Notes under the pieces: generated by a model | What the model saw: the letters and a program-made list of their open reading frames with translations, nothing else | Told to the model about the DNA's origin: nothing | Database searches by the model: none | Shown here: positions 3,060 to 63,740 of the stretch, piece after piece | How positions within the stretch are numbered: the first letter of the stretch is position 1 | How the letters are laid out: every line of letters starts with the position of its first letter | Program-made: the position numbers and the translations under genes | From: Psammoneis japonica | Lineage: Eukaryota | Direction of reading: 5' to 3' | Length of the DNA stretch: 64,000 bases | Assembly: GCA_008632985.1 (NCBI GenBank) | Contig: QPGO01000039.1 | Span: forward strand, 372,001 to 436,000

Positions 3060-4840
3060 TGCTGTTCGAGAAATTTTCAGTTTTGAAAAAGCTCACACAG
3101 TTTTGCAAAACAACAAGTCTTTAATTTTTCACTTTTGTCACCCAACAAAATTCACAGTTGAGTGCTGTGCCAGGGTCCCACCTGTGGCTCAAACTCGTCA
3201 AAACAAAAAATGGCCCCACAGAGTGTGTGGGTGGTGAGAGAGAGTGGCACAAAACACTGGTGTGCTGCAAGCTGGTGGGCCAAGATGAAGCCAGCACAAT
3301 GAGCAGTGAGACCAGCCCTGCACTGGCCTCCACATTGACAGCAAAAAACACACACACAGCCACAATGAAGAGAAAATGCTCATTGTGCGTCATTGCAAAA
3401 CACAGGGCGTGTGCTTCGAACAATGCAGTCAGATGCCAGACAACACTCTGGGCCACTTGATGGACAACAAAGGGGCGGTTTTGCGTGCACTGCCTTTCCC
3501 CCTGTTTGACCAGCTTTGCACTTTTTTCAAATTTGACCTTGGCTCTCAAGTTGGTTTTCTTCTTTTTTGTGTCACCTTGTCCAGATCAGCTTTGTTGCAC
3601 AGATTTTTCAGCATTGCTTGTGGGCACTCTTCACACAATGTTGAGCACAACAGGCACAAATGACCATGTTTTCTCTTGCCAGTGGCAGCCACAACTCTGC
3701 AAAAAGCAATTTTGTTTCTCTCAAATGGATGGCCTTTTCCATTGTGCACCAGCCCATGCATGAAATTTGAGTCTTGCTCTGTTTGCTTTTCCCCATTTGA
3801 GTGCTGTTTTCATCAGTTGTGCCCATGGGCACACCGGCACACCCACATTTTGCCAACAGAGTTGTCTCTCAAAACCCAGATGTGCCAGCACTTTCTCCTG
3901 TGAGATTGATGGCAGAGTGGGCTTTTGCAGCCTGAGCAGCTAAGGAGTTTGTTGCAGAGCTGCACATCATTGGCGTGCAAGGCAGAAGGTGCAGCAATGG
4001 CATTGCCAGTGACAGCGTCATTCTTTGTTGTGATTGGCGCTGCTTGTTCTTGATGTTTTGCTGGAAAGAAGTTGGAGTCAATGCTTTTTGTTGAGCTTGG
4101 TGTGCAGAGTTGACTTTTTGAATTTTGTTTGGCAAGCTTGTTGTTTTCATGGCACCATCTTCTTGATGGTTGGTGTGGCAGTGGTGTGGTTGGGCAATTG
4201 ATCTTTTGCAGCTGCAGTGCTGCTGCAATCGCTTCTTGAAAACTGTTGCATGAGGCAGCAGAGTTTGCTCTGTGTGGGGGGGCAACTGTCTGTTGGTGTT
4301 GTGTGGCAGAGACTGAGGAACTGGGCATTCTGAAGCTTGTTTGATGAGCTCAGTGTTTCAGTGGTGACAACTTGCTGTTTGTCAGAGTTGAGCATGGAGA
4401 CAACCCTGCAAATGAAGAAAACATTGGTGGAAGGACAGCGGGTGTTGCCTGCTGTGCTGGGAGAGCATGGCTGCACATTGGTGCTAGAAATGGGTGAGCA
4501 TCAGCAGCAGATGTGCTGGCTGCAGCAGCTGTTGGCATTGCATGCGGTTGAAGCTGGGCTGAAGCTGGGCGGTGGAAATGCCTGAGCTTGTTGAATGGCA
4601 CTGGCAAATCCACATTGCACACCATTCTCGCTTGCAGAAACCAGATTCATTTGTCAGTGCCCTTGCGGGTGCACCACCACCAGCAGCATGTTGCCTGTTC
4701 ACATTCATTGTTGCAGGTGATGCATTGAAAGCATCACTCTGCAAAGCTGTGGGGCCCTGGTCGGAGTGAGATGACAACAGCGGTCGCAGCATCTTTGGTT
4801 CGAAGCGTGGGTGAAATGGCACAGGAAACCATTTTTAGCC
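3060..4840. mobile_element. TpA/CpG-depleted decayed sequence, probable transposon or gene relic of unknown family
   Basis: Almost no TA or CG. Overlapping Cys/His-rich, Tyr-free ORFs in many frames; no recognisable domain. Confidence 0.45.
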
Positions 4841-5140
4841 ACTGGCTCTGCCAGCTAGTCTAGCTAGAGAAAAAAGAAGCTTAGCAGCGTTTACTACCTG
4901 CATGGCCACATGCACCGCATGCGGTGACTTTGCATAATCTAGTCTCTACGGCGTAGAAAAGACGGCGCCCTTGCCGGAAGTGCTTCGGATTCCCTTTGTT
5001 CACCCCCCTCCCCCACAAAAAGATCATGAACGCTCCGGGTTAAATACGAAACCGTGTTCTGACGATTCGATGTAGCACCCCTGCTGCCATGCTTCATCCG
5101 TTGGTTCCAGAATCGTTCGAAGCAGAGTAATGGTTGTTAC

Positions 5141-7816
5141 CTACGTAGCGGTCGGAGCAGATGAGGGTGCATTTTCGCAACATTGAATGGCAAACTCTTG
5201 AGCAAAGCTGCAATCAAAGTCCCCCTCGGGATTGTTGGCTGTAAATTCAATTTCCCCACAATCAATATCAAAATCGTCCAAGACAATGGTGAGATTGGAA
5301 ATGGGTACAATATCCGTGCCTTCACAAATGCGACAAGCGTCTTGATTGGCAATTGGATTGTCGCAGCCGCAGAAGACGCCCGCGGTGCTTTGAAACGCGG
5401 GGCAAACGTCACTGGTGGAATCATAAAAATATGCCAATGCCGCCCAATCCAAACAGGTCCGATTAAAGGTGACTTCTTCTGATAATCTTTCAATCGCCAC
5501 AGCCGACCCATCCTCACAAAGGTCACAAAATTGTATATCCGAGGTACAACCACAATTTTTGAGGCCTGCATAGCGGATGGCGTCGCATTGACCCGGTTCC
5601 AAAGTTCCCGTAGATGCCAGCAGTTGAAGCTCGTAGCAATTGAGGGTGCCATAGCCGGCTTGTTCTACTAAAGCTGGAGCTTCCCACGAGTCTCGCGGAA
5701 TTAACAACTCGTCAAAATTTTGTTGAAAACACAAGCCAGTACAAGGAGAGGCAAAGAAACCATCGGGAGGGGGTGGAAGAATGCAACCGCAAAGTGTAAT
5801 GATATCCTCAAAAATACCCTTGTTTTCTTGGCAAGTCGTGTCGTTGGCAAACAATGTAAATTGCCGTTCCACTTCACCGCACGTGTACTCGTCTTGCGGG
5901 ATAAAATCAGGCGCAAATCCCTCCAAGATTCGATTGGAAAAGGGCGTCGAATTGCCCGGTCCACACAAACCACACGAAACGTCGTCAATCGAAACATTGG
6001 CACAACCACAGTAAAAGCGATATCGCTCAATATCGGCACAAAGAGCTTCATCTTGACTGGCTGTTTCTTGCAATTCCAAACACGTAATTGGAGTTTCACC
6101 TCCCGGTCGGTAAATAGTTCGATTGGGAAACAAGAGATTGTCGTCACTCGCACATATTGGACATGCCTTGGGAGCTGCCGTAGGAGTGTTACTACCCGGA
6201 TTATCATCAGAACAACACGGAGTTCCAAACAACTGCGCCTCGTCACATGTGTACTGGCCATTGGGATCGTTTCCGCTAAATTCCAGTTCTCCACAATCCA
6301 ATTCCAATCCCTGTAGTATTAGTGTTTGATTCGAATCGGGCACCACCTCTCCATCAGGACAGATGCGACACGCGCCTTGACTGGCAATGGGATTATCACA
6401 TCCACAATACTCGCCAAGCGTGTTTTGAAAGGCACGACACTGCTCATCATTGGTGTCTCGAAAAAATGCATCACCCGCAACATCCAAACAGGTGGTTTCA
6501 AGAAAGACTTGTTTTGCCAAATTTTGGCGAGTCACGGCGGTTCCGTCCTCGCACAAGTCACAATAGTCAACATCTGCAGAAATAGTACATCCACAATGTT
6601 TGACTCCAACATAATTTGCTGCATTGCATTCTCGGGGAAACAAGACTCCCCGTGCTACCAGTAATTGGTACTCGTAACAATTGAGCGTTCCAAAAAAGGG
6701 TTGATTTTGTAATGCTGGAGAATCCCAGAATTCTTGTCCAATGAGTGTTTCATCCAAACAAAGCGTCGTGCAGGAAACATCAACTTCTTCCGCAGGTGGT
6801 TCCAAGTTGCAACCGCAAAGCGCGGCAATGTCATCCTCAAGTAAATTCTTGTTTTCCGTACACAAATCAGCATTGTTGTTGTACAAACTCAATTGTCGTT
6901 CGACTTCACCACACGTGTATTGGTCGGCGGGAATAAAATTCGGAACAGCAAAGCCCGCCAAAATTCGATCCGGAAATGGAGTAGTAGTAGTCGTTGTACC
7001 ATTACAGAGTGTACAAGAAACTTGCTCTTCTGGAGATACATTGTCACAACCACAATAATAGCGATAGTTGGCAAGAGTGGCACAGGCTTTATTTGTGTTT
7101 GTATTTTGTGCTTCTTGCTGTAATTTCCGACATGAAATTGGGTCTTTGCCTTGTCTGTAAATGGTACGATTGCGCACAAAGTTGGCATTCTCCTCACAAA
7201 TGTTACAATCATCAATTAGGATCGTAGTTGGACTTGGCGTAATAATGCTCGGTGGAGTAGTTGTTGTTTCAGCGGTCGTGGGAGTAGCCGTTGGCGTCTC
7301 TGTGGGAATAGTCGTCGGCGACTCTGTTGTGGGAGAAGTCGTAGTAGCGATTGTTGTTGTTGCTGTGCTTGTTGTTGTAGTCATGGTGGTGGGTGTAATT
7401 GTATTGCTCTGCATCGTGGTGGGTGACACGGTAGGATTCGGCATACTAGTAGGAGCGGTGGTGCTGGGCGAAATGCTGGGCAAAGTGCTGGGCAAAGTGC
7501 TGGGCAAAGTGCTGGGCGAAGGTGTGGTGATTGGAATTCTCGTTGTAGGACGTAGCGTGGGTCGCATGGTGGTTGGAACAAGAGACGGTGATGCTGTAAT
7601 TGTCGTCGTCGGTTGAATGGTTGTACCTGATGCTGTTGTTGTAGACGTATCCTTCTCATCATTACTGTCGCTATTGTTTTGATTGGCCAAGGAAACCACC
7701 GTTGTAATGATTCCCGCCAACAAAAACACACTTCCCAACGCCAACAATATGGTGAGTGAGCTCAATTTTTTCATGTGGATGTTATATTGTTTGATGATGG
7801 AATCATGCACATGCAA
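5141..7816 (-). CDS. Membrane-anchored cell-surface protein with a Thr/Pro-rich mucin-like stalk and duplicated Cys-rich repeats
   Basis: 891-aa ORF (the true start may be MKKLSS near 7774). N-terminal TM helix, T/P/S-rich region, then two ~300-aa Cys-rich halves (YTCGEVERQ, GTLNCYE, CDLCEDG, CGCDNPIA each occur twice). Confidence 0.8.
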   Translation of the reverse strand: MHVHDSIIKQYNIHMKKLSSLTILLALGSVFLLAGIITTVVSLANQNNSDSNDEKDTSTTTASGTTIQPTTTITASPSLVPTTMRPTLRPTTRIPITTPSPSTLPSTLPSTLPSISPSTTAPTSMPNPTVSPTTMQSNTITPTTMTTTTSTATTTIATTTSPTTESPTTIPTETPTATPTTAETTTTPPSIITPSPTTILIDDCNICEENANFVRNRTIYRQGKDPISCRKLQQEAQNTNTNKACATLANYRYYCGCDNVSPEEQVSCTLCNGTTTTTTPFPDRILAGFAVPNFIPADQYTCGEVERQLSLYNNNADLCTENKNLLEDDIAALCGCNLEPPAEEVDVSCTTLCLDETLIGQEFWDSPALQNQPFFGTLNCYEYQLLVARGVLFPRECNAANYVGVKHCGCTISADVDYCDLCEDGTAVTRQNLAKQVFLETTCLDVAGDAFFRDTNDEQCRAFQNTLGEYCGCDNPIASQGACRICPDGEVVPDSNQTLILQGLELDCGELEFSGNDPNGQYTCDEAQLFGTPCCSDDNPGSNTPTAAPKACPICASDDNLLFPNRTIYRPGGETPITCLELQETASQDEALCADIERYRFYCGCANVSIDDVSCGLCGPGNSTPFSNRILEGFAPDFIPQDEYTCGEVERQFTLFANDTTCQENKGIFEDIITLCGCILPPPPDGFFASPCTGLCFQQNFDELLIPRDSWEAPALVEQAGYGTLNCYELQLLASTGTLEPGQCDAIRYAGLKNCGCTSDIQFCDLCEDGSAVAIERLSEEVTFNRTCLDWAALAYFYDSTSDVCPAFQSTAGVFCGCDNPIANQDACRICEGTDIVPISNLTIVLDDFDIDCGEIEFTANNPEGDFDCSFAQEFAIQCCENAPSSAPTAT
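7475..7519. repeat. 12-bp tandem repeat (GCTGGGCAAAGT)n encoding PSTL repeats
   Basis: Three full copies plus flanking partial copies are visible within the mucin stalk. Confidence 0.85.
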
Positions 7817-8286
7817 CGGACAGAGTCGTGTCGTGTGCTTTTTTTTGTCTCAAGAGAGAGAGAATTTTACAATGTGATGTTCGTTTGTTGTTTCATGAGT
7901 ACAGTAGCCAAAAAGGTACCGGTATCGTGTCAAAAAGCTTTTAGTTTGTCGTGCGCCTCGTCCTTCTCGTTTTTCTCTGATTGAGAGGCAGGTGCGTCCA
8001 GTCGTGCTTCGTGATGGGCGGACGGACGCTTTTCCGTTGAAAGTTGAACGGCAATTCCAAATTATTTGTGTTTGCATGCACATCTTTTTTTTTATGCAAC
8101 ACAAGTAAGTGCAACAAGACCTTCATTGACGTCGAGATCGTCGAGAGACCAAGCAGCAAGCAGCCAGAGAGACGAGAGTTTTGACAGTGAGGCTTCCGTG
8201 AGATTGTTGTGTTTCATGCAAAACGTTGTACTACCTTTCAGAGTAAAGCACTACTACGGTACCTGTGTTTCTCACGTGCTTGAACC

Positions 8287-9231
8287 ATGACAAAGGGTAT
8301 CCAACTGCCACGTCGTGTGCTTTTTCTGCTGCTCCATCTTTTTTTCGGTCAAATGATTTTTGCCCAAAATAATGACGAATGCAACGGCATGCAGCCTGGA
8401 GATATCATGGTTTCGGGATTCAACATGGATGACCCAGACGAGGTGATTCTAGTGATTCTCAAGAATATACCAAAGGGAACTCGATTTTTCTTGACAGACC
8501 GTCCTTGGAATGGAACCGGTTTTGTGGACGGTGATAACGATGGGACGCTCATGGTACGAGATTTTTTGGAACGCACATGGGTACAAACGACAATGACAAC
8601 CGATCAAACTCATTTACTCACATTGTTCTTTGCGTTAATTTTGTGAAAGTGGAATGTCGGTAGCACTCTTCCACAGAGTGTGGAAATCTGTTATCAGTGT
8701 ACTTTGGACGGGAGCGTGATTGACAATTTTGTTCCAGTCGAGACAAGTAACCCGAATCAAAGATTCTCTCTGGATAGCAAAGGTGATACCATGATTCTCT
8801 ACTGCATGACGACTGAATCACCAAACACCGGCAACAACATTCGTCACATTACTGCCCTTACAAACACTGGATTCTGGATCAATACTACTACTGATCAAGT
8901 AGTTAATGCTACCACAGAGCAGCAGTCTTTGTCTGACAGTGGTGCCAGTGTGTTGCCATCCAATCTTGCCACAGACACAGTCACGACTCTTTCCAACAAC
9001 TACAGTAACTACGAGTATGATGGCTTGTTGGTTGGGACACCCACTGAAATACGGTCTTACATGAGCAATGCTAGTTATTGGGATGGCCATGAGGGCTACA
9101 TTGATGACTTGCAGACCAAATCGTCCTTTAAAGTTATCGATGAACCCGATGAAAACAGTGCCTCGGAAACTACATCTAGAGACGTTTCAACACTTTGGAT
9201 GCTGCCAACATTTGCCTTGGCCTTTTTGTGA
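8287..9231 (+). CDS. Secreted, possibly GPI-anchored protein (lamin-tail-like beta domain suspected)
   Basis: Signal peptide; motif GDIMVSGFNMDDPD...IPKGTRFFLTD..W.G; intron 8554-8649 (GT..AG) joins LM|WNVG in frame with the 8680 ORF; hydrophobic C-terminus. Confidence 0.7.
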
Positions 9232-9749
9232 GTCTCACGTACAGAGAGGACTGGGGCAGCGAACTGTCTGCTTTCTTATAAACAACAAAGAGGATGTCGA
9301 GGAGAGATCCGCCTTAGAGACCGTAACAGCTTTCGTTTAATGTATGGTTCCCAGGAAGTGCTCTTACGTGTTCTTCGGTGTCGACATGATAATTCCTTAG
9401 ACTCATTCGGCCGTGCAGTATTGCGTGATAATGTCCTGTTCGAAAGTATAAGAGGTTCACAATGACGGTCAAGAAGTAATGTGGCCAGTCGTTCAGTTAT
9501 GTCGTTCTTGTCATTCCTTCGCATCCTTTCTATAATTCGCTTGCAGCATAAGTGGGAAAAATAATTCGTGTGCTTGTGCACCTGAGTGCATATTCGTAAT
9601 TCTGTTGGATTACCTGGCTTTTCCAATGGCATCGTGTCTACCTGTCTTTCCATGGTGTCAGACGAAACATGTGCCCGTTGTCCCCGGAATGTCGACTCTG
9701 GAAAATCGTGGCACTTCAAGCCAAAAAATATGACATTTGAACCATGTGA

Positions 9750-11500
9750 GTGTATGTCAGTTCTCACCATTGGTGTGTCTTGCCAACGCAGTGTGTGCGC
9801 TTCTAAATTGGCTTGCGGGCCGGGCAGCATGAAAATGTGGCATGTGGCTGTGTCAAAACTTGTTTGCCTTGTCCCGGCAGTGTGCCATTGCCCTTGTCAA
9901 ATTGTGTCTTCTTCTTTTGTCTTGTTGGTGTGTGACCTCAGACTGCATCTGCCAATGCTTGCAGCACTGCCTTTGCTTCTAGTGGGAAATGATCCTCAAA
10001 GAATCAGCCTTGCAGTCATGATGGTCCACTTGTGCAATCACAGAAGTTGTGAGTGGCAAACCTTGGCCACAGTCAAGCACCCCAGTCCAATCACCAAGGT
10101 TGTTTCCATTGCTTTTTGATTGCTTTTTGATGTGATGAGTTTGCACCTTAAGCCCTTGCCAATGCAGTGCACACTTTTGTCAGTGCCAGGCACATGCAAT
10201 CATTGCTTTTTGAGCTTGTTGCTGATGTGTCAATTGAGAAATTGGATTGTGACTTTGACCCTCAAGCTTGATTTCCCAAGAAGTTGACATTCAGATGTGT
10301 GAGTGGGTGGACAGATTGACTGTGATGGTTTTTGGCACTGTCCTGCACAATTTCCATGCAATGACTCTGAGAGCCACAATGACTTGATGTGCATTGATGG
10401 ATGCCGCCGCCATGCACAAAGTGTGGTTCAAGTGCCCCCCACACAGCACTTGGAGGGATTTTCCAAGTGATGCATCTTCCTGCTGAATGGGATGTTGTTC
10501 AACCCATTCATTCATGGCATGCACTGGCCACCCAAATGGTTGCATCAGTGACAATGCAAGGTTGTCACACCAGTGATTTTGGTGCAGGGGCTTGTCACCT
10601 GTTTTGGCATCCACATGCCTCCCCCTGACTGCCAGCACACTGATTGAGAAAAGTGCAGATCCCAAATGTGCAGGTCTCTCTTTTGCTTGCCACAATCAAC
10701 AAGTGTCACCAGCCAATGTCCCAAGCACCTCCAGTGTGTTGCTGGGGCAAATGCTGTGCTGTTGTCAGACAATTTCTTCTTTGAGAACTTGCATCACCAG
10801 GATGCAATTGGGGCATCAAATGAATGCCCCACAACCAAATCTGCTCATTCAAGCTGCAACTTGCTGTTGTGCATTTGTTGACCAGCGCAATGTCACTCAT
10901 GCTGGCTGTCAATGCCGCGGGCATGAGGGAATGAGAGATGAACTGCCTGAGTGCAAATCAAGGAGTTTGAGCACAGGAGCATGGATGGCAGCACAGATGG
11001 CCAAGGAACCAGTGTCATCATGCCAATTTAGTTGCAGGTGCTAAATGGGTTTGCACATGTTGCGCACTGATGGAAGTTCATCCAGTGACAAAAAGAGGGG
11101 TTTTTGTTCAGAGCACATGGCACATGTGGACTCAGCAACCCACACTTGGGCCTGTCCATTTGTTGAGGCCATCACAAAGGCTCCAGCATCATGGTGCCAT
11201 TGAACAGAGCAAAATGCCTTTGATGCAGAATTGGCTTGTTTTGAAAGATGCAATGTTGCCCACTCTTGTCACACCCCAGCAAGTTGCAAATGCAGACAGA
11301 TGTGTCGGCACTGAGCACAAATCTCTCTGACACTTCAATGCAGCCATGATGTGAGGCTTCCATTTGAAGCTCCCATGAGCTGGCATTTTTGGGAAAGCAA
11401 AAAGCAGGCAATCTGAATCTTCAAAAAATCATTTTTAAAAATGAGGAGTTTGATTTTGAAAATCCCCATTGCCCATCCATGATGCTTCTCATTTTGCTTG
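9750..11500. mobile_element. TpA/CpG-depleted decayed coding-like sequence of unknown identity
   Basis: Very few TA or CG. Long, partly open minus-strand frames broken by TGA; no domain recognised. Confidence 0.4.
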
Positions 11501-11775
11501 GACATCAATCACAACATTGATTGCTTGTCATCATGTGAGTGACAAGTCTGACCATGATCCATGCCACAGGGCCCTGTCCAGTCTGAGTTCTCCAGCTCAA
11601 GAGTTTGTTTTTCTGCTCTGGGCCCTGCTGCCTGTGAGCAGTTAGCAGCAGCACAGGCAAAGATGCGATGCACAAGAAATTTTTTTGAGGGACATCCATG
11701 ACTGAAACTTGTTTTTGCACGCCTCTCCATGCTGCACTTTTGCACATCACTTCATGTTGCCTCAACACATCAACA

Positions 11776-13700
11776 ACGGGAGTTGGAAATCTGTGGGTCA
11801 AAGCCCTTGGTGATGTCAACAAAGTACAGTCTGCATCATTTTCTGAGGCCAGTGGAAAAAGAGTTGGGATCGACACATTGGCATGGCTTCATGAAACATG
11901 CCACAAAGAGGCCACTGCACAGCGCTCCTGTCACAGCCACCGCATGCACCAAAGAGTTTGTTGACAGCAAATGAGTCCATGCACAACAAGCTTGTGTCAG
12001 CTGGGGCATCTCCTGTGCATGTTTTTGATGGGGCAAGGCATCCAATGAAGACTGCACGAAACAACAAGATTGCAAAAGCAGAGGCATGGATGGACAAGTG
12101 CTGTCAGAAAGGCAAAGCCGGTGATGCCATTGCTGAGGTTGACTGACACCAATCATTGCAAAGAGCAAGAGATCTGTGCAATCCTTCAGCAGACATCAGA
12201 GCTCATGTGGTCAAACAATGGATGTGGTTGGCAATGGGGCACAAGTCAACATGAATGTGCTCCATGTGAGTTCAAGCACCAACTTGTCAAGACAGAGGCA
12301 GATGGTCATGTCTGTGGTGTCATGATTGAGGACAGTGATGCCATCATTGTGGGGGCCAAGGTTGTTTGTTTTGAGGTTGACACATGGTTTGCCACATGGA
12401 AAGTGTGTGAAAGGAACTCCTTGCCCACCAATTGCCCCATTGGCACTCATGACTTCAAACACTGGGCAGTGACAGCAAATCTTCTTGGCTCAGACTACAA
12501 CCAACAAGTGGAGAACATGACTGGCCATTCAACAATCTTCAAGAGCATCCTTCTGAGGCTTGCTGGGGCAGATTGGTCTGGAGATGCTGCAGCAAGAGTG
12601 GTTGAGAAAGCATTTTGATGGGCTGCAATCCCAGCGGGCTGTGCAGACAACTTTGACAGGGCTGTGGTGCTGTTTGTGCACTGCCTGGTCCTTGACAAAA
12701 ATGACAATCTGGCTCCACTGCTGAATCCATTGGAAGGAAATGCAGGAGATGATCCTGGTTTGTCTTGGGGAGATGTCATTGGCTTCAACCCTGCTGAGTT
12801 GCTCCCCAATGCCATCACAAACTGCCGGATGGCATGGCAGTTTGAAGGGCCAACCTTTTTGAACAGCAAGGCATTGAGCAAGAAATTTTTGGCTCCTCTG
12901 TGCAATGCATCTGAGAATGAGCAACTTGTTGGGAAGGAGCTGCCTCTGTGTGCTTGGCTCAACTTCAAAGCCATGCCCATTCCATGTGTGCAAACTGACG
13001 TGATGCAGTGTTGGGCATCCACTTGACTCGGATGCCCCATTGCAGGTGATTGGTTGGAATTGGAGTTGGCTGTTCAAAGACTCATGTCAATCAACAAAGG
13101 AGCGCCAGAGCCAGAGAAAGTCCCGCTGCAAATTCAAAGATGGATGGTTCACAAGGTTGCAGTGCTGGTCAACAACAACATGGGTTGGGATCACAGTTGG
13201 TGTTGTGATTGCATGTTGGAGCTTGATTCAATGCTGTCAAGCTTGGTTGAAAACTTCTGCCAAAAAGGCAATGAACAACACAACCTTGAACAAAGGTTCT
13301 TGCTGTCACAAGGTGGCAGTTTGCTCATTGATGCAACAGAATTTATCTGCAGGACACTTGCCAAAGGCAACTTGGTTTGGCCGCTCAAACTCTGTTGCAT
13401 TCCATCCATGAAGACAGAAGTGGTGTCATCAAACCTGCAGTTGGCAAGCAACAAAAGATGCAGGAAGGCTGCATGCTTTGCTTGGAGTTTGATGCTGACA
13501 CAAAGAGTTTCTGTTGCACCCATTTTCATGCTGTGGATGCTGTGATGGATGAGGTGTGTGTTTGCACACTCTTGCAGCACCATTTTGAAAGAACGGTGCC
13601 TCCATCTCCAATCAACAAAGTGCCACTCTTGACTGAGCTTGTGACTGTGCAAGAGAAGACAAAGCTTGGCAGCATCAAAACAGGAAACAAGAGCCAGTGC
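11776..13700 (+). pseudogene. XPG/FEN1/Exo1-family 5' nuclease with C-terminal SWIM zinc finger (relic)
   Basis: N-domain (ACG)GVGNLW...GKRVGIDTLAWLH and PVHVFDGARHPMK; I-domain APCEFKHQL...GVMIEDSDAIIVG; H3TH LLGSDYN; SWIM-like CGCCDG*GVCLH at 13532-13567. Multiple frameshifts and TGA stops. Confidence 0.8.
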
Positions 13701-13756
13701 AGATTGAACCACCACAAGCAAACACAAATGATCATTTTGTGGCTGTTGCTCAATTC

Positions 13757-15900
13757 TCAATCCCAGTGGTTGACAGGAAGAACACTGTTGGCCCCTGGCC
13801 ATTGGAGTGGCATGCCAAGGTTCATTTCCATGTGCCCCCATTCCAACGTGCATGCGCGCATGGAACAACACAAAGATTCTTACATGGGACATCATTGTGA
13901 AGACCGTTCATGGCAACAAGCCAAGAAAAAGTTGCCTCCATCAGATGCTGCACCTTGCAAATGTGTCTTTCTTGTTTTCAAGTTCCAGCTCATCATGTTG
14001 TTTGACAGTTCATGGTTGCAAGACTCAAGGTGTGCACACTTGATTGAAACAATGTGGAAAATGGTGCTCTGTCTTCTCAAAACCTTTGTCACCACTGAGT
14101 CCTTTTTGTTTGGAGGGATTCTGTGCATGTGCAAGCAGACTTCCAGAGGTGACTCTGGGTCATGCATTTTGCAGTTTTGGTGGAATCAGTTTGCTTCCCA
14201 TCCAGCCCACAATTTTCCTTTGTCATTTCAAAGCAGGCACTCAGGATGTTGCGCTGGATGGTTTCAAGTTGTGCAGCCTGTGGAGTCTCTCAAACACCTT
14301 GAGTTGCTGAAGAAAAATGACTCTGGATCATTTTGTGATGAGCAGGCCAACGCCTTTTCATTCAAAGCCTTTGACAAGGCTTGGTCTTCACAGACAAGTG
14401 ATGCAGCCTTGTCAACTCCGGCATGTTTGAGTTTTTCTCCTTTTTCAACGTCTCAATTCTTTCATTCAACCATTTGTTGCACTTCACAAAAACATGCTCA
14501 CACTTTGAAACCTCCTCACCATCACTGTTGGTGCTGGATTCTGCAGAAGACATTGACACAACGCTTTTTCACTCCAGTTGTCACTTGAGTCTGTCCAGTT
14601 GGACTCACAACCATTGCTCTGAGAGTTGTCACTGTTGTTGGATTCTTCAGACCATTCAACATTTTGGTGGCCTGCACTCATGTGATTGACAAGGCTGTCA
14701 CCAGACTCTTGAGAATGTTCAATGACAGCTCCAATCCAAGCATTGTTGGTTGTGCCATTTTCCATGTCAAAGCAATCACATGGTGTTGAGAGAATCAAAA
14801 GAAATTCTCTGGACTTGGCCCACTGTGGTGCCCATTTTTCAACACATCTCTTCACTGAATGCCGTGAGACATGCCAAAAGCAGTTCCAGTGATCTTGCAC
14901 ACCGGGCAATGCTGTGCAAAGTGCTTCACAATCAGCAGCTGTTCAAATTTGGTTGGATTGCATTTTGGTGTTCTGTCATCTCCATCCAAATGGATTTCAG
15001 ACACAAAAATTGGTGCATCAACAAAGAAGCATGAGATGTGATGTTTCATCTTCTCCAAAGTGTGAAACCCAAACATGTTCTTGAAGCTGTTGGATTGTCA
15101 GTGCGCCATTTGGGTGATGCAAGTTGACAATGAGCAGCAGAATCTGAATCAAGAAAATCTGTGACAAAGTTTTCAATGTCACATTTGTCAAACAAAGGCT
15201 CAGTGTTGGCCACTTCAGTTTCATGCTTCCTGTGTGCGCTCACCCGGTTGCCTTGTTTCAGCAGCGAGATGATGTCTCCTGAGGTGCACTCTGAGCTGAC
15301 TTTTTAACAACTTCCAGCTCCATTGCTTTTGAAGGCTCATTCTCTTTGTCATGTGATGCTTCTCCATCATTGACACAATCACCAAGAGTGAGTGGGTTGA
15401 ATCTTGCTTGGCATCCCTTCAGCTTCGCAACTCCTCGTGCTTGTCCAGTGCTTGGTTGTGCACACTGCATGGCAACTTCCTCGTCTCCATCAACAATGAA
15501 TTCTCATTGGCACATTGGGACAATGAAAATGTGCTGCATCAGATCCCTTCACAAAGTGCTCACGGTCGACCACCTCCGCACCGCGGGCAGGGGTGCAGAT
15601 GGTTTCTTGCCGCCTTCAAAAGAGAGCGCAGTCATTGACTGACGGTCCAATGATGCCTTGCAACAGGAGCCTGATCCCCAAGTTGTCAATCACATCACAA
15701 GATGTTCCAAAGTTCACCAACACTGCTTCTCTCCATTTCTCTGCTTTCTCCAACTTGCCTCCAAGTCGCAGATGCACACATCGCCCGGCACGAGGTTCAT
15801 CTTTGCCTGCTCTTCGGCTCAAGCACGAAAACTCTCTTGGATCTCACAGCACTTTAGACCCCAGCTGCAAACCCATTGATCTTTCTCCTTGTGGGACAAG
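13757..15900 (-). pseudogene. DDE_Tnp_4-type (Harbinger/ISL2EU) transposase relic
   Basis: HTH_Tnp_4-like FEQLLIVKHF...GTAFGMS..SVKRCVEKWAPQW (~14820-14950); catalytic-region GDKGF (14079-14093) followed by NQVCTP*VLQP*TVKQHDELE; C-terminal LEWGHMEMNLGMPL. The 5' boundary is approximate. Confidence 0.72.
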
Positions 15901-20720: not shown

Positions 20721-20908
20721 TCGGTAGACGCACAGACTCACCTCTTGAAAAGACACGTCACGCTCTGACCGTTGATGGTTTGTTTCCTAAATATTTTTCA
20801 AAAAGACCCTGTCCACGTAGACTTTGTACCAAACTCAACGCACGAGACATTCTTGCGAGTTGTTTCTCGTTGCTCCTCACCACAACACAACACACAAGTC
20901 GAGAGACC

Positions 20909-26430: not shown

Positions 26431-26553
26431 ATAATTGACAATTTTGCTTCTATGTGCGTGGCAACTGTGCGTGGCAAACAGCACGTCATAATAAATGTAA
26501 GGAGCGAATCGAAAGCCTCAGTTTTGGCAAAAGCACACACATCTAAAAGGGGA

Positions 26554-48321: not shown

Positions 48322-51300
48322 TCTACAGAGTCTCGTCATCGAAGCTAGTCCAAATCTTCCTAGTAGGGACTGTGTCTCGATTCTCCGAATCAACTGAATC
48401 TCCCGGGTTCAAACGGGGCCAAAGAGTCTGCACAGGCGACAGAGAGATAAAATTGTTAGATGCAGTGCCGAAGCAACAGCGCGTACCGAGAAGTTACTTC
48501 ATCGATGACTTACTTGATCCCAATGGTAATTGCAAGATAAGGCAGAACGCAAACCGTAAAAATATTTTTCGGATATAGTTTTCCATTTGCGACCCTCGGT
48601 TTCGATTGCAGCACGAAGAGTCGCGTTGTCCGAGTCTGTCCAAGGCATTGCTACCAAATCCACATTCGCACCGTTCGTGTTCTCAGATAGGGCTCGTTTC
48701 TTTCGTTTCAACTTCACCTGCAGGGCCTGTAGACCAGAAAGTGAAAGGAAGCAAAAGTGTGGTTATGAGGTACGAAAGCCTCAGAACAAGCAAAGGTAGC
48801 CAGGAATCACTCTTACTTGATCCCAATGACTTGAACATTGACAAGAAGTGCGCTCGCCCTTGAAGTAGTTCTTCGAAATCTTCGCCCAGTTTCGTCCTTC
48901 TTTAGCTACAGCGACACGTAAGTTCTCGTCTTCCTCCGCCGTCCAGCGCTTTCTCTTCTTCGTGGTTTGAGTTACGGTGGCATCATTTCCAATTCCAGAA
49001 ACGGAAACGGAACTGGAAGAATCTTCGATGGCCACAAATTCGTCACTCTCAACGCTTGCGGTTTCACACACGGCCCCGTCTTTGCGTTTCAATTTTGAAT
49101 GAAGGGTCTGCAGAAAATAGAAATGGAAGGGAAGCCATAGTTGGCAAGAGATTATGCAAGTACCGATGGGAAAGGCACAGGACATGATTCTTACTTGATC
49201 CCAATGCGTCATACATTGAACAGGATTGCGCTCGCCCTTGAAGTAGCACATCGATATGTATGCCCAGCAACGTCCTTCTTTCGCTACAGCGGCACGTAGC
49301 TTCTCGTCTTCCTCCGCGGTCCAGAGCTTCTTCTTCTGCGTGGTTTGAGCTATGGTGCCATCATTATTTCCACTTCCAGAGCCGGTTAGAGCGGAACCAG
49401 CGTCAGCGGCGGCTTTATTTCCATGATCAGAACAGGGATCTCCTGATCCAACGGTTGTCGAAATCTCGGTACTCGCCTTGGGCCTATCTGCTGCGAACTC
49501 ACGTTGACGATCGGTTTGCGCTGTACCGACACATGCACCCGAAAAAACATCGATGTCAACAACATCGTCACTCTCAACGCTTGCGATTTCAGATACGGCC
49601 CCGTCTTTGTGCTTCGATTTCGGCTGAAGGGTCTGCAGAAAATAGAAATGGAAGGAAAGCAATCGTTTGGTATATGGGAGTGTGCAGGTACCGAAAGGAA
49701 AGGCACTGGACATGATTCTTACTTGATCCCAATGTTTTGAACATTGAACAGCAGTGCGCTCGCCCTTGAAGTAAGACATGGATATGAATTCCCAGCATCG
49801 TCCTTCTTTCGCTACAGCGGCACGCAGCTTCTCATCTTCCTCCGCAGTCCAGCGCTTCTTCTTCTTGTTCTTCTTCGCGCTTTGAGATACGGTGCCATCA
49901 TTTCCATTCCCAGAAACGGGAACGGAACCAGCATTAGCGGTGGAATCACTAATATTATCAGAACAGGGCTCTCCTGCTCCAACGGTTGTCGAAAGCTCGG
50001 TAATCTTCTTGGGCTTATCTGCTGCAAACTCACGTTGACGATCGGTTTGTGCGGTGCCAACACATAAACCCGAAGAATCATCGATGGCCCCAAAATCGTC
50101 ACTCTCAACGCTTGCGGTTTCACACACGGCCCCGTCTTTGCGTTTCGATTTCGACTGAAGGGCCTGCAGAAAATAGAAATGGAAGGAAAGCAATAGGTTC
50201 GTGTAAGGGAAAGTGCAAGTACCGAAAAGGAAGGGCACAGGACATGATTCTTACGTCATGCCAATGTTTAGAACATTGAGCAGCAGTGCACTCGCCGTTG
50301 AAGTAGTTCTTGGAGATCTTCGCCCAGTTTCGTCCTTCTTTAGCAACAGCGGCAAGCAGATTCTCGTCTTCCTCCGCCGTCCAGCGTTTCCTCTTCTTTA
50401 TGGCTTGAGCTACGTCTAGCCAGCTTCGTTCTTCCTTCTCTTCAGCGACAAGTAGTTGGCCGTCTTCTTCTGCCGTCCAACGCTGCCTTTCCTTCGTGGA
50501 GCGTGCACCGGCATGTCCATTTCCATAGTCGGAGCCGTGCTGAGTGGAATCAATAGCAGAGGTGGTGTCATTCTTTCCACCTTCAGAACCGGCCTTCCCC
50601 GATGCAAGGGTTGCTGCAACCTCTGTACGTTCACTGGCCCTGTTTGCCGCGACCTCACATCGAGTACCGTCATCGATGGCCCCAATATCGTCACTCTCAA
50701 CGCTTGCGATTTCAGATACAGCCCCGTCTTTGCGTTTCGATTTCGACTGAAGGGCCTGCAGAAAATAGAAATGGAAGGAAAGCAATAGGTTCGTGTAAGG
50801 GAAAGTGCAAGTACCGAAAATGAAAGGCACAGGACATGATTCTTACATTACGCCAATGATTTGAACATTGAGCAGCAGTGCACTCGCCCTTGAAGTAGTT
50901 CTTCGATATCTTCGCCCAGTTTCGTCCTTCTTTAGCAACAGCGGCACGTAGATTCTCGTCTTCCTCCGCAGTCCAGCGTTTCCTCGTCTTTGTGGCTTGA
51001 GCTACGTCTAGCCAGCTTCGTTCTTCCTTCTCTTCAGCGACAAGTAGTCGTTCGTCTTCCTCTGCCGTCCAACGCTGCCTTTCCTTCGCAGTGCGTGCAC
51101 CGGCACGTCCATTGCCATGGTTGGAGCCGGGCTGAGTGGACTCAATAGCAGAGGTGGTGTCATTCTTTCCACCTTCAGAACCGGCATGCATCGATGCAAG
51201 GGTTGCTAAAACCTCTTTACGTTCGCTGGGCCTGTCTGCCGCGACCTCGCATCGAGCACCGTGTTGGGTTGTGCCAAGCGATTCTCCCCAAGAGTTGATG

Positions 51301-58226: not shown

Positions 58227-58279
58227 AATCGGATGGGTTGCTCCTTTCTGTAGAGACAAGTGAGTTTCAAAGCAATTTG

Positions 58280-60230
58280 GATGCTGGCCACCTCTAAACC
58301 CTAGAGCATCATGCTGTTCCATCATTGACCATTTCCATAATTGATTGTAACAAGCTGGTGACTCCAGAAAGGTGTCTGGACTTTAAAGAGCCTTCTCAGA
58401 GTGACTTAGGCAAGCACGAAGGCGCTTGGTTGGTTTTGTGCTTTTGTTGATGTGATGAGACGCCACTGACCAACCACATGCACACACGGTGGATTGGTGG
58501 TGCCCGTGTTGCAGTGCATCAACAAAGACTGCACAAAAGGCACAAGCTGTGGCAAGATGCTTTCGAAACTCATGCTGCAGTTAGCGGTGTGTTGCTGTCT
58601 CTCACCTCAATGACGTGAGCAAGGGAGCCAGCCCACAAATCCTTTGCCATCTTTTGCACAACCAGCCACAACCCCAGGGGAGCTTTCCATCCCTGGCGCT
58701 TGTCATTTTTTCATCAAAAAACTTGTTCTCAGAACTGCATTGCTGGTGATGCCTTTCCTGTGGTGCAAGCTGCTTGACACCCCAAGTTTTGCCAAGGTGT
58801 TCACAGTGAACATCTTCTCTTGGCTGCTGCTCTTCCCTTTGTCATCCACACAGAGATGCTGCCACAGGTTTTTGCCATGCCACAGGTGTGCACCCAGAGC
58901 CCATCACAGCCTGGACTTTTTCCACTCCTGCACAAAGTTGCCATGGTCTGTTTGGAGCCTGCGCCATCTGAGTTGCCTTTTGCACCCACCTGTGACCCAA
59001 ATGGTGCTGCTGGGCTTCTGTCATGTTTTGGTGACAAAAGAGAAGCCATGGTTGGAGCCTTGGCACATTTTTCAGATTTGGCAGTCTTGCTCAAAGAAGC
59101 TTTGCCTTTGCCACACTCATGATGTTTTGCGAGATGACAAAAGTAAAGAATGATGAGGTCTCAGTTTGGCCAGCAAGCTGACAGTGTCAAAAACAAGTCA
59201 CAAAGCTGCGAACCAACTCAAACTGAGCAGCGCTTTGCCATTTTTGTGAAAAGTGTTTGCTTCAACTCAGCAAACATTTTTCAAGCAATGCAAGCAATCA
59301 AACAAAGAAGAAAAACAAGCTTTCTTTGTCTTGCAGCTTTGTTTTAATCATGGTTGAACACAGCAAAGCTTGGGAAGCTTTGGCACATGGAGCAAGAGCC
59401 ACATGGAGAAATTGAAGTCAGGTGTCCTCAAGTTTGACCCTGGCTTTCAACTGTGTCAAAGCAAGGCCTGTTGCTGCTGCTGGCAACAGCTTGATGCCTT
59501 TGTGAAATCAAGATTGCACTTTGCCAAATTTGCTGAAAAAAATTAAAATGGTTTGGACCGACATTGCTGATGAAAAGGAAGCTGCCGATTGCCGCAAATG
59601 TTGTGGCTGGTCATTTGATGAACAAATGCCTGGGAACAAAAAGTTTGGTTGCAGTTGCCTCCTCATTCACTGTGGTCTCCTCCTCTTTCTCTGCATCTGC
59701 AGTGGCCAACTTGCCCTCTGCAATGTCTGCAACTTTGCTGTTGTCTCCAACTGCTGCAACATTTTTCTGCTCCCCCCTTGCTCCCCTCCTGTTCCCTCGC
59801 TCCAAAGCAGCTGCCAATTCCATCTTTTGCCTTCAACTTTTTGTGCCTGATCCCATTTGGCAGCACTTCACTTTTTTCCAATCTTGCAATGGCCAGCTTG
59901 TTGCTCCCACACATGTTTGTGCCTCCTGCACCATGTTGCTGGCTTTGTTTCTCGTTCAGCTCCTGGCTGCCTTTCTGGCAACGTCCATTGCCCCAAAATC
60001 CAATGGACACCTTTGTTTCCATTGGAGCTCACTTTGACTCTCTTTGTTCTCTTCTCAACTGCCAATGGTTCCTGACAGTTGCCACTGCCCTTCCTCTGCA
60101 TGCCCCATCTCGCTCTGCTGCGCAGCATGTCGCTCTCCCCTGAATGCACCACGCGCACCAAGCGATGCATGCCCCACGGACGGGCACCAACCAAACATTT
60201 CCATCTGAAGCTGTCCGCCCTCCAAGCTGG
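58280..60230. mobile_element. TpA/CpG-depleted decayed sequence
   Basis: Dinucleotide depletion; Tyr-free ORFs; no domain recognised. Confidence 0.4.
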
Positions 60231-60760
60231 GAAGACCCTGTCGCAAATCAGCTAATTTAAAACAAATCGACTGACAAAAGTCATTATGATTTTGCTGCCG
60301 TAAGTACAAAATGGGGGCCACCGGAATCACAGCATAAGCTCCGGGTTCACGGGCAGATAATGCATCGTCTGCAGTAGCTACCGTATGTTGAGTCTGAGTT
60401 ATCTCTACTGATGGTAGGTCCTCTACTCTAGTAGACGAGCAAGTGCAAAACAAACAGAAGAAGTGGCTGAAGCTACATGTGCTCTCTAGAAAGCTGCCTG
60501 GTGCACAGAACGGCGCAATTTCGTTGGCAAGTCGTTTGCGATAACGCAAGCATTCGTTTGATCATGTTGATGTGAGCGCCGGATTTCAGCGCTGCACCGT
60601 GTTTCCCACAAAATGATGACGTCCGGTCATGCGTCGATACTGAATAGCATTTCGACAAAGCGAGACGTGTATTCACTTTCAACTTCGTATTGATGAAGTT
60701 CTGCATATGTTTTTTTCAATATGGCGCACGGTACTGGTATTTCCACATCCACCGATTGCA

Positions 60761-62647: not shown

Positions 62648-63079
62648 CACGCTTTTAGGTACTAGTATGGCTTTGGAGGGGAATGTGGAGCGTCTGCGTC
62701 GTATCTCGCATCTTCTGAGCAAGGTACAGATCTTCGTGCAAACGCGTCGCGTCGTTTTTAGAAAAAGGAAGTGCTGGTTGCTGGTGCGTGGTGCTGAACG
62801 TTTCGCTATTTTCCGACTTTACTTTTTTGTTCGTTCGTGAAAAAAGTTTATACTCTACGTACTAAAAGATCGCTTCTCTACTGGACTTTATCATACAGTA
62901 CGTACAGTACAGTGGGGCCCTATCTAGATTAGAGAGGACAAAATTTCACGCTGAATCGAATGGGCCACTCTGATCTTCTGAAAATTGAGTCTTGGGAGTA
63001 TGTATCCTTTTGAGCAGGTCAATTATTTTCCCGCCAAAATACTTAATTAATTTAATTCAGCCGTTAAGTCTTGTAACAG

Positions 63080-63740
63080 CAGGTGCGTCGACCGACGAAA
63101 CCTCCAGACAACAATGTTGCAGGTGCAAACTGGTGGATGGCGTCACCTTCTTTGCTGCACCGCAGCTGGGAAGCTGTCGCGAAACGGACAGCAGCTGGCT
63201 CTCCACCTGGCTGCTCAAGAGAGCAGCTGGTCTGGAGCAGAGAGTGGACAAGCTCTGCAGTGGATGACCTGCAGCACTTCGCGTTGTGCAGCCATCCCAA
63301 GCGGGCTGTCACCGAGGGATTGGTGCAGGAAACACTGGGTTTTCCTGACGCATTGTCTTCAAACGTCGTTGCAACAATGTTGAAGGGCACCAGACAATGG
63401 TGCTGGTGGAGTCACATTTTTTGAGGTTTTTTAGCTGAGTCTGACCCACTTGCACGGATTGACAGCAAGCACACATGTCAAAGTGTCGCAAGGCAATGTG
63501 GTCAGAGTGCCCAGGTCGATGCCGACTGGCGCTGTCACTTGACACTTCAGGGGTGCACACAAGATGCCCACCAAGCTCCAGAGCAGATGGGTTGAGGCAA
63601 GCTGTTTTGTGCTCATGACAAAACAGGCCTGCACAGCCAACAAAGATTTGAGGCTTCTTGATGCCCAAGAAGTTGGGCAGCGCGCTGAGCACAAAACATC
63701 TGTGACACCAACAATCCAGGTGTCGCACTAGCCGTCAAGA
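63080..63740. mobile_element. TpA-depleted (partly CpG-depleted) decayed sequence
   Basis: TA nearly absent; CG retained in the left part. Confidence 0.35.

Follow-up and report, generated by a model that had tools for sequence, protein, structure and literature searches.

Sharply bounded loss of TpA and CpG in a Psammoneis japonica contig points to an undescribed mutation process

Introduction

What could take nearly every TpA and most CpG dinucleotides out of a few stretches of a chromosome, and is such a process already described? This question is raised by a 64,000-nt stretch of Psammoneis japonica contig QPGO01000039.1 (hereafter the window), probably part of a gene-dense diatom chromosome. 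A preliminary description had reported about seven sharply bounded blocks that are poor in TA and CG, rich in TG and CA and surrounded by DNA using both normally, and had proposed that TA and CG were converted to TG and CA within silenced repeats. To our knowledge, targeted hypermutation of mobile DNA takes few forms, all of them based on cytosine deamination, and we found no description in the literature of TpA and CpG erasure of this kind.

Results

Composition and borders of the depleted blocks

We called blocks with a two-state HMM over TA and CG positions and obtained six depleted blocks with a combined length of 13,636 bases (13.6 kb); segmentation on TA only added a seventh, partial segment, in agreement with the number first reported. 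Pooled, the six HMM blocks contain 27 TA where the rate in the remaining window predicts 510 (observed/expected (o/e) 0.03) and 121 CG compared to 731 expected (o/e 0.15), with TG and CA at o/e 1.85 and 1.86. Elsewhere in the window, TA stands at o/e 0.53 and CG at 0.97, and normal use of TA and CG in the surroundings was confirmed. The 14.1 kb lying outside both the blocks and the long ORFs has the same composition as coding DNA (TA o/e 0.57, CG o/e 1.00). G+C is nearly equal in blocks (0.479) and outside (0.471). Per kb, TG+CA is up by 80 in the blocks and TA+CG is down by 80.1, and the total of pyrimidine-purine steps is 242.5 in blocks and 242.9 outside. AT is lower and GC higher inside the blocks than conversion of TA and CG predicts.

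Block 1 spans 3068-4761 within a TA-poor extent of 2990-4835 and holds three TA (o/e 0.03) and 16 CG (o/e 0.16). Block 2 has a CG-poor core at 9822-15562, with 11 TA (o/e 0.03) and 42 CG (o/e 0.13), and remains TA-poor to 15937. Block 3 (18832-20715) contains four TA and 16 CG, and block 4 (25405-26391) two TA where 30 are expected and 19 CG where 63 are expected. Block 5 (26798-28625) has four TA (o/e 0.03) and 17 CG (o/e 0.16). Block 6 (58615-60110) lies in a region that is TA-poor at 58408-60252 and CG-poor at 58231-60110, with three TA and 11 CG. The seventh segment (63075-63728) has a single TA compared to 17.9 expected and 24 CG compared to 46.8 expected. Borders are sharp, to approximately 10-50 bases. 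Between blocks 4 and 5, an island of 406 bases (26392-26797) is normal in composition (13 TA compared to 15.3 expected, 19 CG compared to 21.3 expected), and an intact tRNA-Gln(CTG) gene (26554-26626, minus strand; Rfam tRNA, 59.9 bits) sits inside it.

Five of the seven blocks have no recognizable content. Pfam searches of six-frame read-throughs, with stops as X, gave nothing credible for blocks 1, 3, 4, 5 and 6, and the sole match across all blocks was a weak one to XPG_I. A word-seeded protein search with a block 3 ORF was without match. Besides the tRNA gene, an Rfam search of the whole window at E<=1 gave only two snoRNA matches, both below threshold and both outside the blocks. Because TAA and TAG are scarce in the blocks (0.92 and 0.59 per kb per strand, compared to 7.8 and 7.6 outside), long spurious ORFs appear there; that effect, and its example of a 403-codon ORF at 13377-14588 with one Tyr, were as first described.

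TpA loss does not simply follow CpG loss. In the margin of block 2 (15563-15937), we counted one TA compared to 10.4 expected, yet 18 CG compared to 26 expected. Across three segments (this margin, block 4 and the seventh segment), TA is at 6-10% of expectation and CG at 30-69%, and in general TA loss ends at the CG-loss border or a few hundred bases further out. TpA erasure is not secondary to CpG erasure; it is at least as complete and is seen where CpG is largely kept.

Relics of two genes in block 2

Block 2 holds two convergent gene relics. The first, at 11779-13585 on the plus strand, is a diatom-type nuclease gene of the XPG_N + XPG_I kind with at least three frameshifts and in-frame TGA stops. 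A word-seeded protein search with it was without match, but phmmer identified 36 relatives (best E 2e-44), and in the relatives both Pfam domains, XPG_N and XPG_I, score above the cut-offs. By tblastn, the relic covers residues 2-598 of relative P0001 in frames 1/3/1/2; in Pfam, the relic itself gives XPG_I alone at 17.5 bits. Period-3 signal within the blocks is confined to this relic, at 12300-13200.

The second relic (13760-15082, minus strand) resembles PIF/Harbinger-like transposases of the HTH_Tnp_4/DDE_Tnp_4 family and matches residues 363-859 of protein P0049 in four colinear pieces (E 2e-12 and 7e-10). Its relatives score 19.8-21.1 bits for HTH_Tnp_4, below the cut-off of 27, and P0051 scores 24.3 bits for DDE_Tnp_4, just below the cut-off of 24.8. 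The order of the two relics is that of the genes at locus L002, an intact relative. Judged from these likenesses and this gene order, block 2 is probably what remains of a PIF/Harbinger-like DNA transposon, now dead, that included an XPG-type nuclease gene. PIF/Harbinger-type transposons have terminal inverted repeats and a 3-base target duplication. Neither a four-letter nor a purine/pyrimidine-coded comparison found an inverted repeat joining the block 2 ends; such repeats may have been erased by decay. In a metagenome scan, 119 stretches fit a pattern, and only two of these encode a relative. At the DNA level, L001 (TA o/e 0.58, CG 0.77) and L002 (TA 0.72, CG 0.70), which encode intact relatives, use both dinucleotides normally, and Tyr makes up 1-9% of XPG family members.

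Direction and spectrum of the changes

The direction of change was read from two relics in one block against relatives that are 30-41% identical, with the ancestor itself unseen. For the XPG relic, we used 35 family members (the 36 matches minus P0024, an unrelated peptidase) in an alignment of 421 columns, of which 177 have a consensus of >=50%. At 11 columns with conserved Tyr, the relic has Cys seven times, His twice and Tyr and Phe once each. None of eight conserved Arg columns has Arg: two have Gln, two TGA, and one each Trp, Val, Leu and Lys, such that Gln, TGA or Trp replaces Arg at five of the eight. Tyr and Arg are therefore kept at 1/19 columns, compared to 104/158 for other conserved residues (Fisher p=2.9e-7). 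The motifs PVHVFDG (for PV[Y/F]VFDG) and HECAPCE (for YxxAPYE), singled out in the preliminary description, are both present, and its reading of TGA as former Arg codons fits the two columns above. In the transposase relic, none of 13 Tyr positions compared with P0049 is kept, with five replaced by His, one by Cys and two by Phe.

Among relatives of the XPG relic, six (P0008, P0014, P0016, P0026, P0033 and P0036) have Cys or His at some consensus-Tyr columns. Their Tyr content is normal, and we dropped the idea that they are further hypermutated cases. Given this subfamily, part of the Tyr signal of the relic could be family variation.

Single-base changes in the XPG relic could be assigned unambiguously at 47 sites, comprising 12 CG>CA, nine TA>TG, four TA>CA, four CG>TG, four other transitions and 14 transversions. 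Transitions in TA or CG context make up 29/33, compared to 0.47 under a conservative null (p=1.5e-6); CG>TG/CA accounts for 16 of the 33 inferred transitions and A:T>G:C at TpA for 13. A lack of TpA context among A>G changes had been set beforehand as the outcome that would speak against the proposal; nine of 11 such changes are preceded by T. We set aside the apparent strand bias of CG>CA (12) over CG>TG (four) as a detection bias, because, on one side, changes crossing a codon boundary are synonymous and thus unseen. These data support the origin of the blocks by mutation, TpA to TpG or CpA plus CpG to TpG or CpA, in the direction first proposed.

Duplications and read support

We found no similarity between blocks within the window by self-comparison, whether in four letters or coded as purine/pyrimidine. 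Block 3 contains a tandem duplication (19940-20252 and 20248-20555) whose units share 82% of letters, or 90% when written as purines and pyrimidines, and block 4 has a further small one, which came to light in the purine/pyrimidine-coded self-comparison. The in-block tandem copies differ as TG versus CA, in both letters, at 6/406 positions, compared to 2/1434 in repeats outside (Fisher p=0.002), a count beyond which their divergence and shortness allow nothing; it adds support for mutation in place, with independent conversions after duplication.

We assembled contigs from exact 31-letter words of the reads of run X1, which may derive from the sample that was assembled and for which no library type is recorded. 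Over the blocks, these contigs have a word depth of ~60, like flanking genes, and 0-3 differences per contig, and they bridge four block borders. One contig covers 2500-5192, including block 1, with three differences, all three of TA/CG versus TG/CA type. Over 2500-21500, 92 of 160 contigs are <95% alike (48 at 90-95%, 44 under 90%). Depth in bins within blocks reaches 1.4-5x that of flanks, with the extra contig depth highest in block 3; the extra contigs that are 85-95% alike are the sole hint of further block copies. Run X2 (same sample) gave contigs over gene regions and none within blocks, which is a gap in cover and says nothing of expression.

Along a single strand, the order of TG and CA is random, with an autocorrelation near zero. 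This led us to reject mutation that runs processively along a strand, as it does in single RIP events. The same observation bears on whether the blocks could be a sequencing or base-calling artefact in which modified bases (5mC as T, modified A or T as G or C) yield false TG and CA. Heavy modification of diatom transposon DNA is plausible, and X1 may share its sample with the assembly and has no recorded library type. However, symmetric modified sites predict conflicting all-TG and all-CA versions; TG and CA are instead mixed at random on one strand, which misread modified bases cannot produce. In addition, the X1 contigs repeat the block letters at flank-like depth across four borders, and the relics also bear frameshifts and 14 transversions. 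The artefact reading is largely refuted already, and we regard it as exceedingly improbable.

Discussion

The blocks are probably silent, decayed insertions in a gene-dense chromosome, in which nearly all TpA and most CpG would have been converted in place to TpG or CpA. The changes have a consistent direction, the conversions are transitions only and they are sharply targeted, unlike ordinary decay of unconstrained DNA. Conversion would have occurred one site at a time, on either strand, and stopped within tens of bases of the block edge. Deaminated 5-methylcytosine in methylated transposon DNA may account for the CpG part. For the TpA part, the data point to a mutation process not described before: a further, context-specific conversion of A:T to G:C that would act in the same domains, with an efficiency at least that of CpG decay and partly independently of it. 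Two routes lead among the possibilities. Adenine, or a modified adenine, that follows T may be deaminated to hypoxanthine and read as G, or T preceding A may be modified or oxidized (5hmU/5fU type) and mispair with G. In either case the element would be permanently dead, with Tyr changed to Cys or His and Arg to stop, Gln or Trp, and would be inactivated without A+T enrichment of the RIP type. The data support an erasure confined to silent stretches with sharp bounds, among them at least one dead transposon, which upholds part of the earlier claim that silenced repeats are targeted; as to the word "repeats", the blocks are mutually unrelated in the window.

Ordinary neutral decay, in which a genome-wide bias against TpA together with CpG decay affects any old unconstrained DNA without targeting, would fit the low TA (o/e 0.53) and high TG/CA (1.2) found across the whole window. 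This is quite improbable given that the 14.1 kb outside blocks and long ORFs keeps TA at 0.57 and CG at 1.00, that the blocks end within tens of bases and that the 406-base tRNA island between two blocks is normal. Transitions out of context are also rare (4/33), which makes the XPG relic too young for general saturation. It is very improbable, too, that the elements were TA- and CG-poor while active, through selection to evade a host nuclease or sensor of these dinucleotides. Viruses and phages are known to avoid dinucleotides, but a working protein could not retain as few as 1/19 conserved Tyr and Arg, carry TGA at Arg columns and have at least three frameshifts. Tyr is used normally by intact relatives, with TA o/e of 0.58-0.72 in their DNA, and the blocks have no period-3 coding signal beyond 12300-13200.

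The changes might instead have been made in RNA, by ADAR-like hyper-editing before integration that was fixed by reverse transcription, with CpG decay coming later. ADARs favor a 5' U, and editing of the two strands in a duplex would account for TA>TG as well as TA>CA. Against this, the sole element that we could identify is not a retroelement but probably a DNA transposon with a transposase of the DDE type, and ADARs are commonly viewed as metazoan enzymes. The loss is ~95% complete and TpA-strict (9/11 A>G after T), a strictness we would not expect of an ADAR. TA loss ends at the CG-loss borders or a few hundred bases past them, and three polymorphic sites of the TA/TG type between haplotypes in block 1 argue for change in place. 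We judge editing of RNA highly improbable and favor targeted conversion in the DNA of silent insertions.

It is possible, though doubtful enough that we offer it tentatively, that this conversion is an enzymatic defence. Diatoms, or this lineage, might mark inserted mobile DNA and rewrite both self-complementary pyrimidine-purine dinucleotides, using a TpA-specific DNA-level A:T>G:C editor alongside CpG methylation and deamination. The editor would be a duplex-DNA adenine deaminase, or an enzyme that modifies thymine to a product pairing with G. If true, this defence would mirror RIP, killing transposons but leaving no A+T-rich isochores, and its editor would be the first in any eukaryote to act naturally on DNA bases at TpA.

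Whatever its basis, near-complete TpA-specific A:T>G:C change would, for a nuclear genome, constitute a mutational signature not seen before, and the enzyme activity or base modification behind it would probably be new as well. Such a process would be relevant to transposon silencing in diatoms and offer a candidate role for genome-defence genes of unknown function, of which DNMT4 is an obvious one. Repeat annotation would be affected as well, as such relics evade similarity searches and yield long false ORFs. An adenine- or thymine-directed DNA editor, if responsible, would also matter in practice, for base editing.

Comparison with known systems

Parts of the pattern have precedents. Enterobacterial very-short-patch repair depletes CTAG, an example of loss of a TpA-containing word via biased T:G repair, and dinoflagellates have 5-hydroxymethyluracil in place of T at TpA and TpC, an example of thymine modification. 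We know of no case in which either erases TpA in eukaryotic transposons. Editing by APOBEC (of cDNA) and ADAR (of double-stranded RNA) resembles the blocks in inactivating mobile elements through context-dependent transitions, and A>G is the ADAR outcome. These enzymes act partially on RNA or single-stranded retroelement intermediates, APOBEC in a strand-specific manner, whereas block 2 is the probable relic of a DNA transposon altered on both strands, near-completely and with signs of in-place change.

The CpG component agrees with decay of 5-methylcytosine as found in vertebrates, Cryptococcus and diatoms, where silenced elements change CpG to TpG or CpA and unmethylated neighbors keep CpG o/e near 1; here, CG o/e is 0.15 in blocks and 0.97-1.00 outside. 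A RIP-like decay aimed at CpG is described for basidiomycete transposons (PMC3318451). Methylation-driven CpG decay, unlike the process in the blocks, leaves TpA alone.

The blocks also have a likeness in form to RIP of Neurospora and other ascomycetes, which involves RID (DNMT4 family) and DIM-2. RIP is set off by duplicated sequence and depends on a RID/DNMT4-type enzyme and a sexual phase. As in the blocks, RIP is a near-saturating, transition-only hypermutation of sharp segments beside untouched genes, and it ruins transposon genes by missense changes and stop codons. Diatoms possess RID-related DNMT4 enzymes of unknown function (PMC9998398). RIP turns C:G into T:A, chiefly at CpA, and so makes TpA, removes CpA and TpG and lowers G+C, whereas in the blocks TpA is destroyed, TpG and CpA are made, G+C is unchanged and outcomes at neighboring sites are uncorrelated. 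RIP yields only C:G>T:A, but 13/33 transitions in the XPG relic are A:T>G:C, and Tyr gave Cys or His at 9/11 columns in this relic and at 6/13 in the transposase relic. The signature of RIP is a TpA/ApT ratio >0.89, a (CpA+TpG)/(ApC+GpT) ratio <1.03 and A+T enrichment. In the blocks these indices are inverted, at 0.04 and 2.04, and in its result the process is the opposite of RIP, as the preliminary description had held.

Composition and extent of the depleted blocks

The TpA observed/expected (o/e) ratio in 500-base windows fell from about 0.5 to 0.00-0.08 in discrete stretches, where CpG also fell, from about 1.0 to 0.04-0.3, and TpG and CpA rose to 1.7-2.1. A two-state HMM on TA and CG positions called six blocks, at 3068-4761 (block 1), 9822-15562 (block 2), 18832-20715 (block 3), 25405-26391 (block 4), 26798-28625 (block 5) and 58615-60110 (block 6); segmentation on TA alone added a seventh segment at 63075-63728. 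Block borders were sharp to within tens of bases. Pooled over 13,636 bases, the blocks held 27 TA against 510 expected at the rate of the rest of the window (o/e 0.53 there) and 121 CG against 731 expected (o/e 0.97 in the rest). G+C content (0.479 in the blocks versus 0.471 in the rest of the window) and the density of pyrimidine-purine steps (242.5 versus 242.9 per kb) were nearly equal, and the combined loss of TA and CG (80.1 per kb) matched the gain of TG and CA (80 per kb), as expected from transitions confined to TA and CG. These counts across the 64-kb window confirm the stretches short of TA and CG and rich in TG/CA that the preliminary description reported. The long spurious ORFs that it had noted arise because TAA and TAG are nearly gone (0.92 and 0.59 per kb per strand in the blocks versus 7.8 and 7.6 outside).

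The pooled blocks were also lower in ApT (53 versus 65 per kb) and higher in GpC (76 versus 58 per kb), by arithmetic about 16 per kb below and 18 per kb above the prediction from TA and CG conversion alone; another ancestral composition or a third process could be the cause. Between the tandem copies in block 4, CAATTG in one copy twice lay opposite CAGCTG in the other. Surviving CpG in block cores was concentrated in G+C-rich contexts (41 of 101: GCGC 19, CCGC 15, GCGG 7), and surviving TpA lay mostly in TTAA, CTAA/TTAG and CTAG.

The blocks are neither a sequencing artefact nor neutral drift

The sequencing run X1 contained 97% of sampled words from 8000-17500. Contigs derived from its reads reproduced the blocks with 0-3 differences each from the window, at a word depth of about 60 both inside and outside blocks, and crossed the borders of blocks 1 and 3 on both sides and that of block 2 on the left; X1, a run of unrecorded library type, is not fully independent, as it may be the sample from which the window was assembled. 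A stronger argument against an artefact is the mixing of TG and CA on a single strand, since a misread symmetric modified site would be called TG in reads of one strand and CA in reads of the opposite strand. As in normal DNA, the autocorrelation of TG/CA order on one strand was close to zero from lag 1 to lag 5 in the largest block; in the five smaller blocks most values lay within ±0.12 and one reached 0.20. Together, the single-strand mixing and the X1 contigs largely rule out a basecalling artefact. In block 1, an X1 contig differed from the window at three positions (TG/CG, CA/TA and TA/CA), as would be expected of alleles that differ at the few TA and CG sites still left, although with n=3 this is only a hint.

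Drift of unconstrained DNA was likewise ruled out, because the 14.1 kb outside both the blocks and ORFs of at least 150 codons had TA and CG o/e ratios of 0.57 and 1.00, equal to those of coding DNA. The process was targeted to bounded silent DNA. Blocks 4 and 5 are separated by a 406-base island (26392-26797) of normal composition (TA 13 of 15.3 expected, CG 19 of 21.3 expected) that contains an intact tRNA-Gln(CTG) gene. Either two insertions occurred, each about 170 bases from the Pol III gene and one per side, or the active tRNA gene forms a barrier within one silent domain.

The blocks occupy gaps between ordinary eukaryotic genes, which encode O-GlcNAc-transferase-type, glutamate-synthase-type, Myb, Cas1p-type acyltransferase and DUF6824 proteins. 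A 902-codon ORF (5141-7849; region 5041-7727) had no Pfam match and has a paralogue about 90% alike in X1 and X2, a second run of the same sample, in which 1334 bases (6174-7509) are replaced by 23 other letters. At 48663-51262, a unit of about 590 bases is repeated in tandem within and beside a Myb-domain ORF (48781-50250); the copies are 78-92% alike and normal in composition.

No kinship between blocks was detected within the window in either four-letter or purine/pyrimidine code. Of the 160 X1 contigs over 2500-21500, 92 matched at below 95% (48 at 90-95%, 44 below 90%), and bins inside blocks reached 1.4-5x the flanking depth in X1, which suggests a few other copies elsewhere in the genome. 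Copies hit independently at 80 sites per kb are expected, by arithmetic, to diverge by about 8%, which fits the class of contigs under 95%.

Block 2 is a dead two-gene transposon

Six-frame Pfam scans of the blocks returned a single match, a weak XPG_I in block 2, and nothing credible in the other blocks; a period-3 signal was kept only at 12300-13200. Searched exhaustively with phmmer, the read-through of 12049-13398 gave 36 relatives (best E 2e-44, identity 33-41%). The XPG-type relatives are proteins of some 650 residues that carry XPG_N, XPG_I and, at the C terminus, a conserved CxCx6CxH motif that may resemble a SWIM zinc finger. Their ESM Atlas cluster is eukaryotic; few of its members have a record, and diatoms are the most frequent phylum among those that do. 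The relic spans residues 2-598 of one relative, P0001, at 11779-13573 in frames 1/3/1/2, and has therefore undergone at least three frameshifts.

On the metagenome contig L002, an intact XPG-type gene is convergent with a second ORF that has a 95%-identical relative, P0049 (859 aa), and a more distant one, P0051. Both proteins matched HTH_Tnp_4 and DDE_Tnp_4 slightly below the Pfam cut-offs. Residues 363-859 of P0049 match block 2 on its minus strand (15082-13760) as four colinear pieces, so that block 2 and L002 share an order of convergent XPG-type and transposase-like genes. Because its relics match the XPG family and P0049 and are arranged as in L002, block 2 is the remains of a DNA transposon with two genes, probably of the PIF/Harbinger-like kind. 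The recurrence of this convergent pair in the relic (11779-15082) and intact in L002 (824-3478) suggests a putative undescribed family of diatom transposons carrying a structure-specific nuclease with the CxCx6CxH motif.

Direction of change in the relic genes

We aligned four pieces of the XPG relic (11779-13585, plus strand) to a profile of 35 family members; one of the 36 hits (P0024, an unrelated peptidase) was left out. The alignment covered 421 columns with at least six family residues, 177 of them with a consensus of at least 50%. Among 11 consensus Tyr columns the relic had Cys in seven, His in two and Tyr and Phe in one each, and none of eight consensus Arg was kept (Gln 2, TGA 2, and Trp, Val, Leu and Lys once each). 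Consensus Cys (9 of 9), Trp (5 of 6) and Gly (13 of 16) were largely retained. Overall, Tyr and Arg were kept in 1 of 19 columns versus 104 of 158 for all other residues (Fisher p=2.9e-7).

Of 72 mismatch columns, 47 could be explained by one unambiguous base change and 15 needed more than one; the rest were ambiguous. The 47 comprised 12 CG>CA, 9 TA>TG, 4 TA>CA, 4 CG>TG, 4 other transitions and 14 transversions. With distant relatives rather than the true ancestor as reference, 29 of 33 transitions thus fell in TA or CG context, against a null of 0.47 that allows for half of block G, A, C and T now lying in TG/CA (p=1.5e-6). None of 13 aligned P0049 Tyr was kept in the transposase relic (His 5, Cys 1, Phe 2, others). 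Tyr content was ordinary in XPG-type family members, and TA and CG o/e were 0.58 and 0.77 in L001, a second contig encoding an intact relative, and 0.72 and 0.70 in L002; mutation therefore removed TA from a copy already dead or dying. At the level of sequence comparison and on one element, these data demonstrate change from TpA and CpG to TpG and CpA, and the direction proposed in the preliminary description was upheld.

As a caveat to the Tyr columns, a subfamily of six members (P0008, P0014, P0016, P0026, P0033 and P0036) has Cys or His at several family-Tyr columns and normal Tyr overall, so that part of the Tyr signal could reflect family variation. The likely source is natural variation and, less probably, partial loss of TpA in other genomes.

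TpA loss is separable from CpG loss

Just beyond block 2, 15563-15937 had 1 TA of 10.4 expected and 18 CG of 26 expected; weak colinear transposase matches extend to 15872, and the transposase relic probably has its 5' end in this stretch. TA was also the more depleted in block 4 (TA 2 of 30, CG 19 of 63 expected) and in the seventh segment (TA 1 of 17.9, CG 24 of 46.8 expected), and the reverse case was found in a short stretch at 58231-58407 (CG 0 of 8.3, TA 6 of 7.3 expected). Because the two losses are separable, CpG decay does not bring about the TpA process as a side effect, and wherever both can be compared the TpA process has gone further towards completion. TG-versus-CA differences occurred at 6 of 406 aligned positions in tandem copies within blocks versus 2 of 1434 in repeats outside (Fisher p=0.002), an excess that fits independent hits after duplication.

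The process makes only transitions. These fall at both self-complementary pyrimidine-purine steps and on either strand, were made one site at a time, and are confined to bounded domains. The CpG loss would be due to deamination of 5mC, and to judge from the CpG o/e of 1.0 outside the blocks, the rest of the genome is probably unmethylated. Two routes rank as likeliest for the TpA loss: adenine or modified adenine 3' of T may be deaminated, or thymine 5' of A may be modified or oxidised and mispair with G. Biased T:G repair seems an unlikely source, and so does RNA editing ahead of integration, the one identified element being a DNA transposon. A hint that may bear on the choice between the two routes comes from the Tyr codons of both convergent relic genes (12250-15100), which gave 12 TA>TG and 3 TA>CA on the plus strand (binomial p about 0.035, by arithmetic); a strand bias at TA independent of gene orientation is possible, but its signal is too slight to support a conclusion. 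The chance that the hypermutation stems from a categorically new DNA-editing activity is substantial.

Comparison with known systems

Joint loss of TpA and CpG in repeats was not described in the literature searched by full text, and term look-ups in three diatom papers (PMC2806351; 10.1101/2025.10.24.684338; PMC4504042) gave no description either. We know of no counterpart to the TpA component. According to PMC9998398, 31 of 60 diatom species carry DNMT4 enzymes, which are relatives of RID, the enzyme of RIP, and have been assigned no function. We class the process in the blocks as a form of targeted hypermutation of mobile DNA for which the searched literature yielded no earlier description. 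It shares its CpG component with methylation-driven decay and adds a TpA component to it. Relative to RIP the outcome is inverse, with TpA/ApT of 0.04 and (CpA+TpG)/(ApC+GpT) of 2.04.
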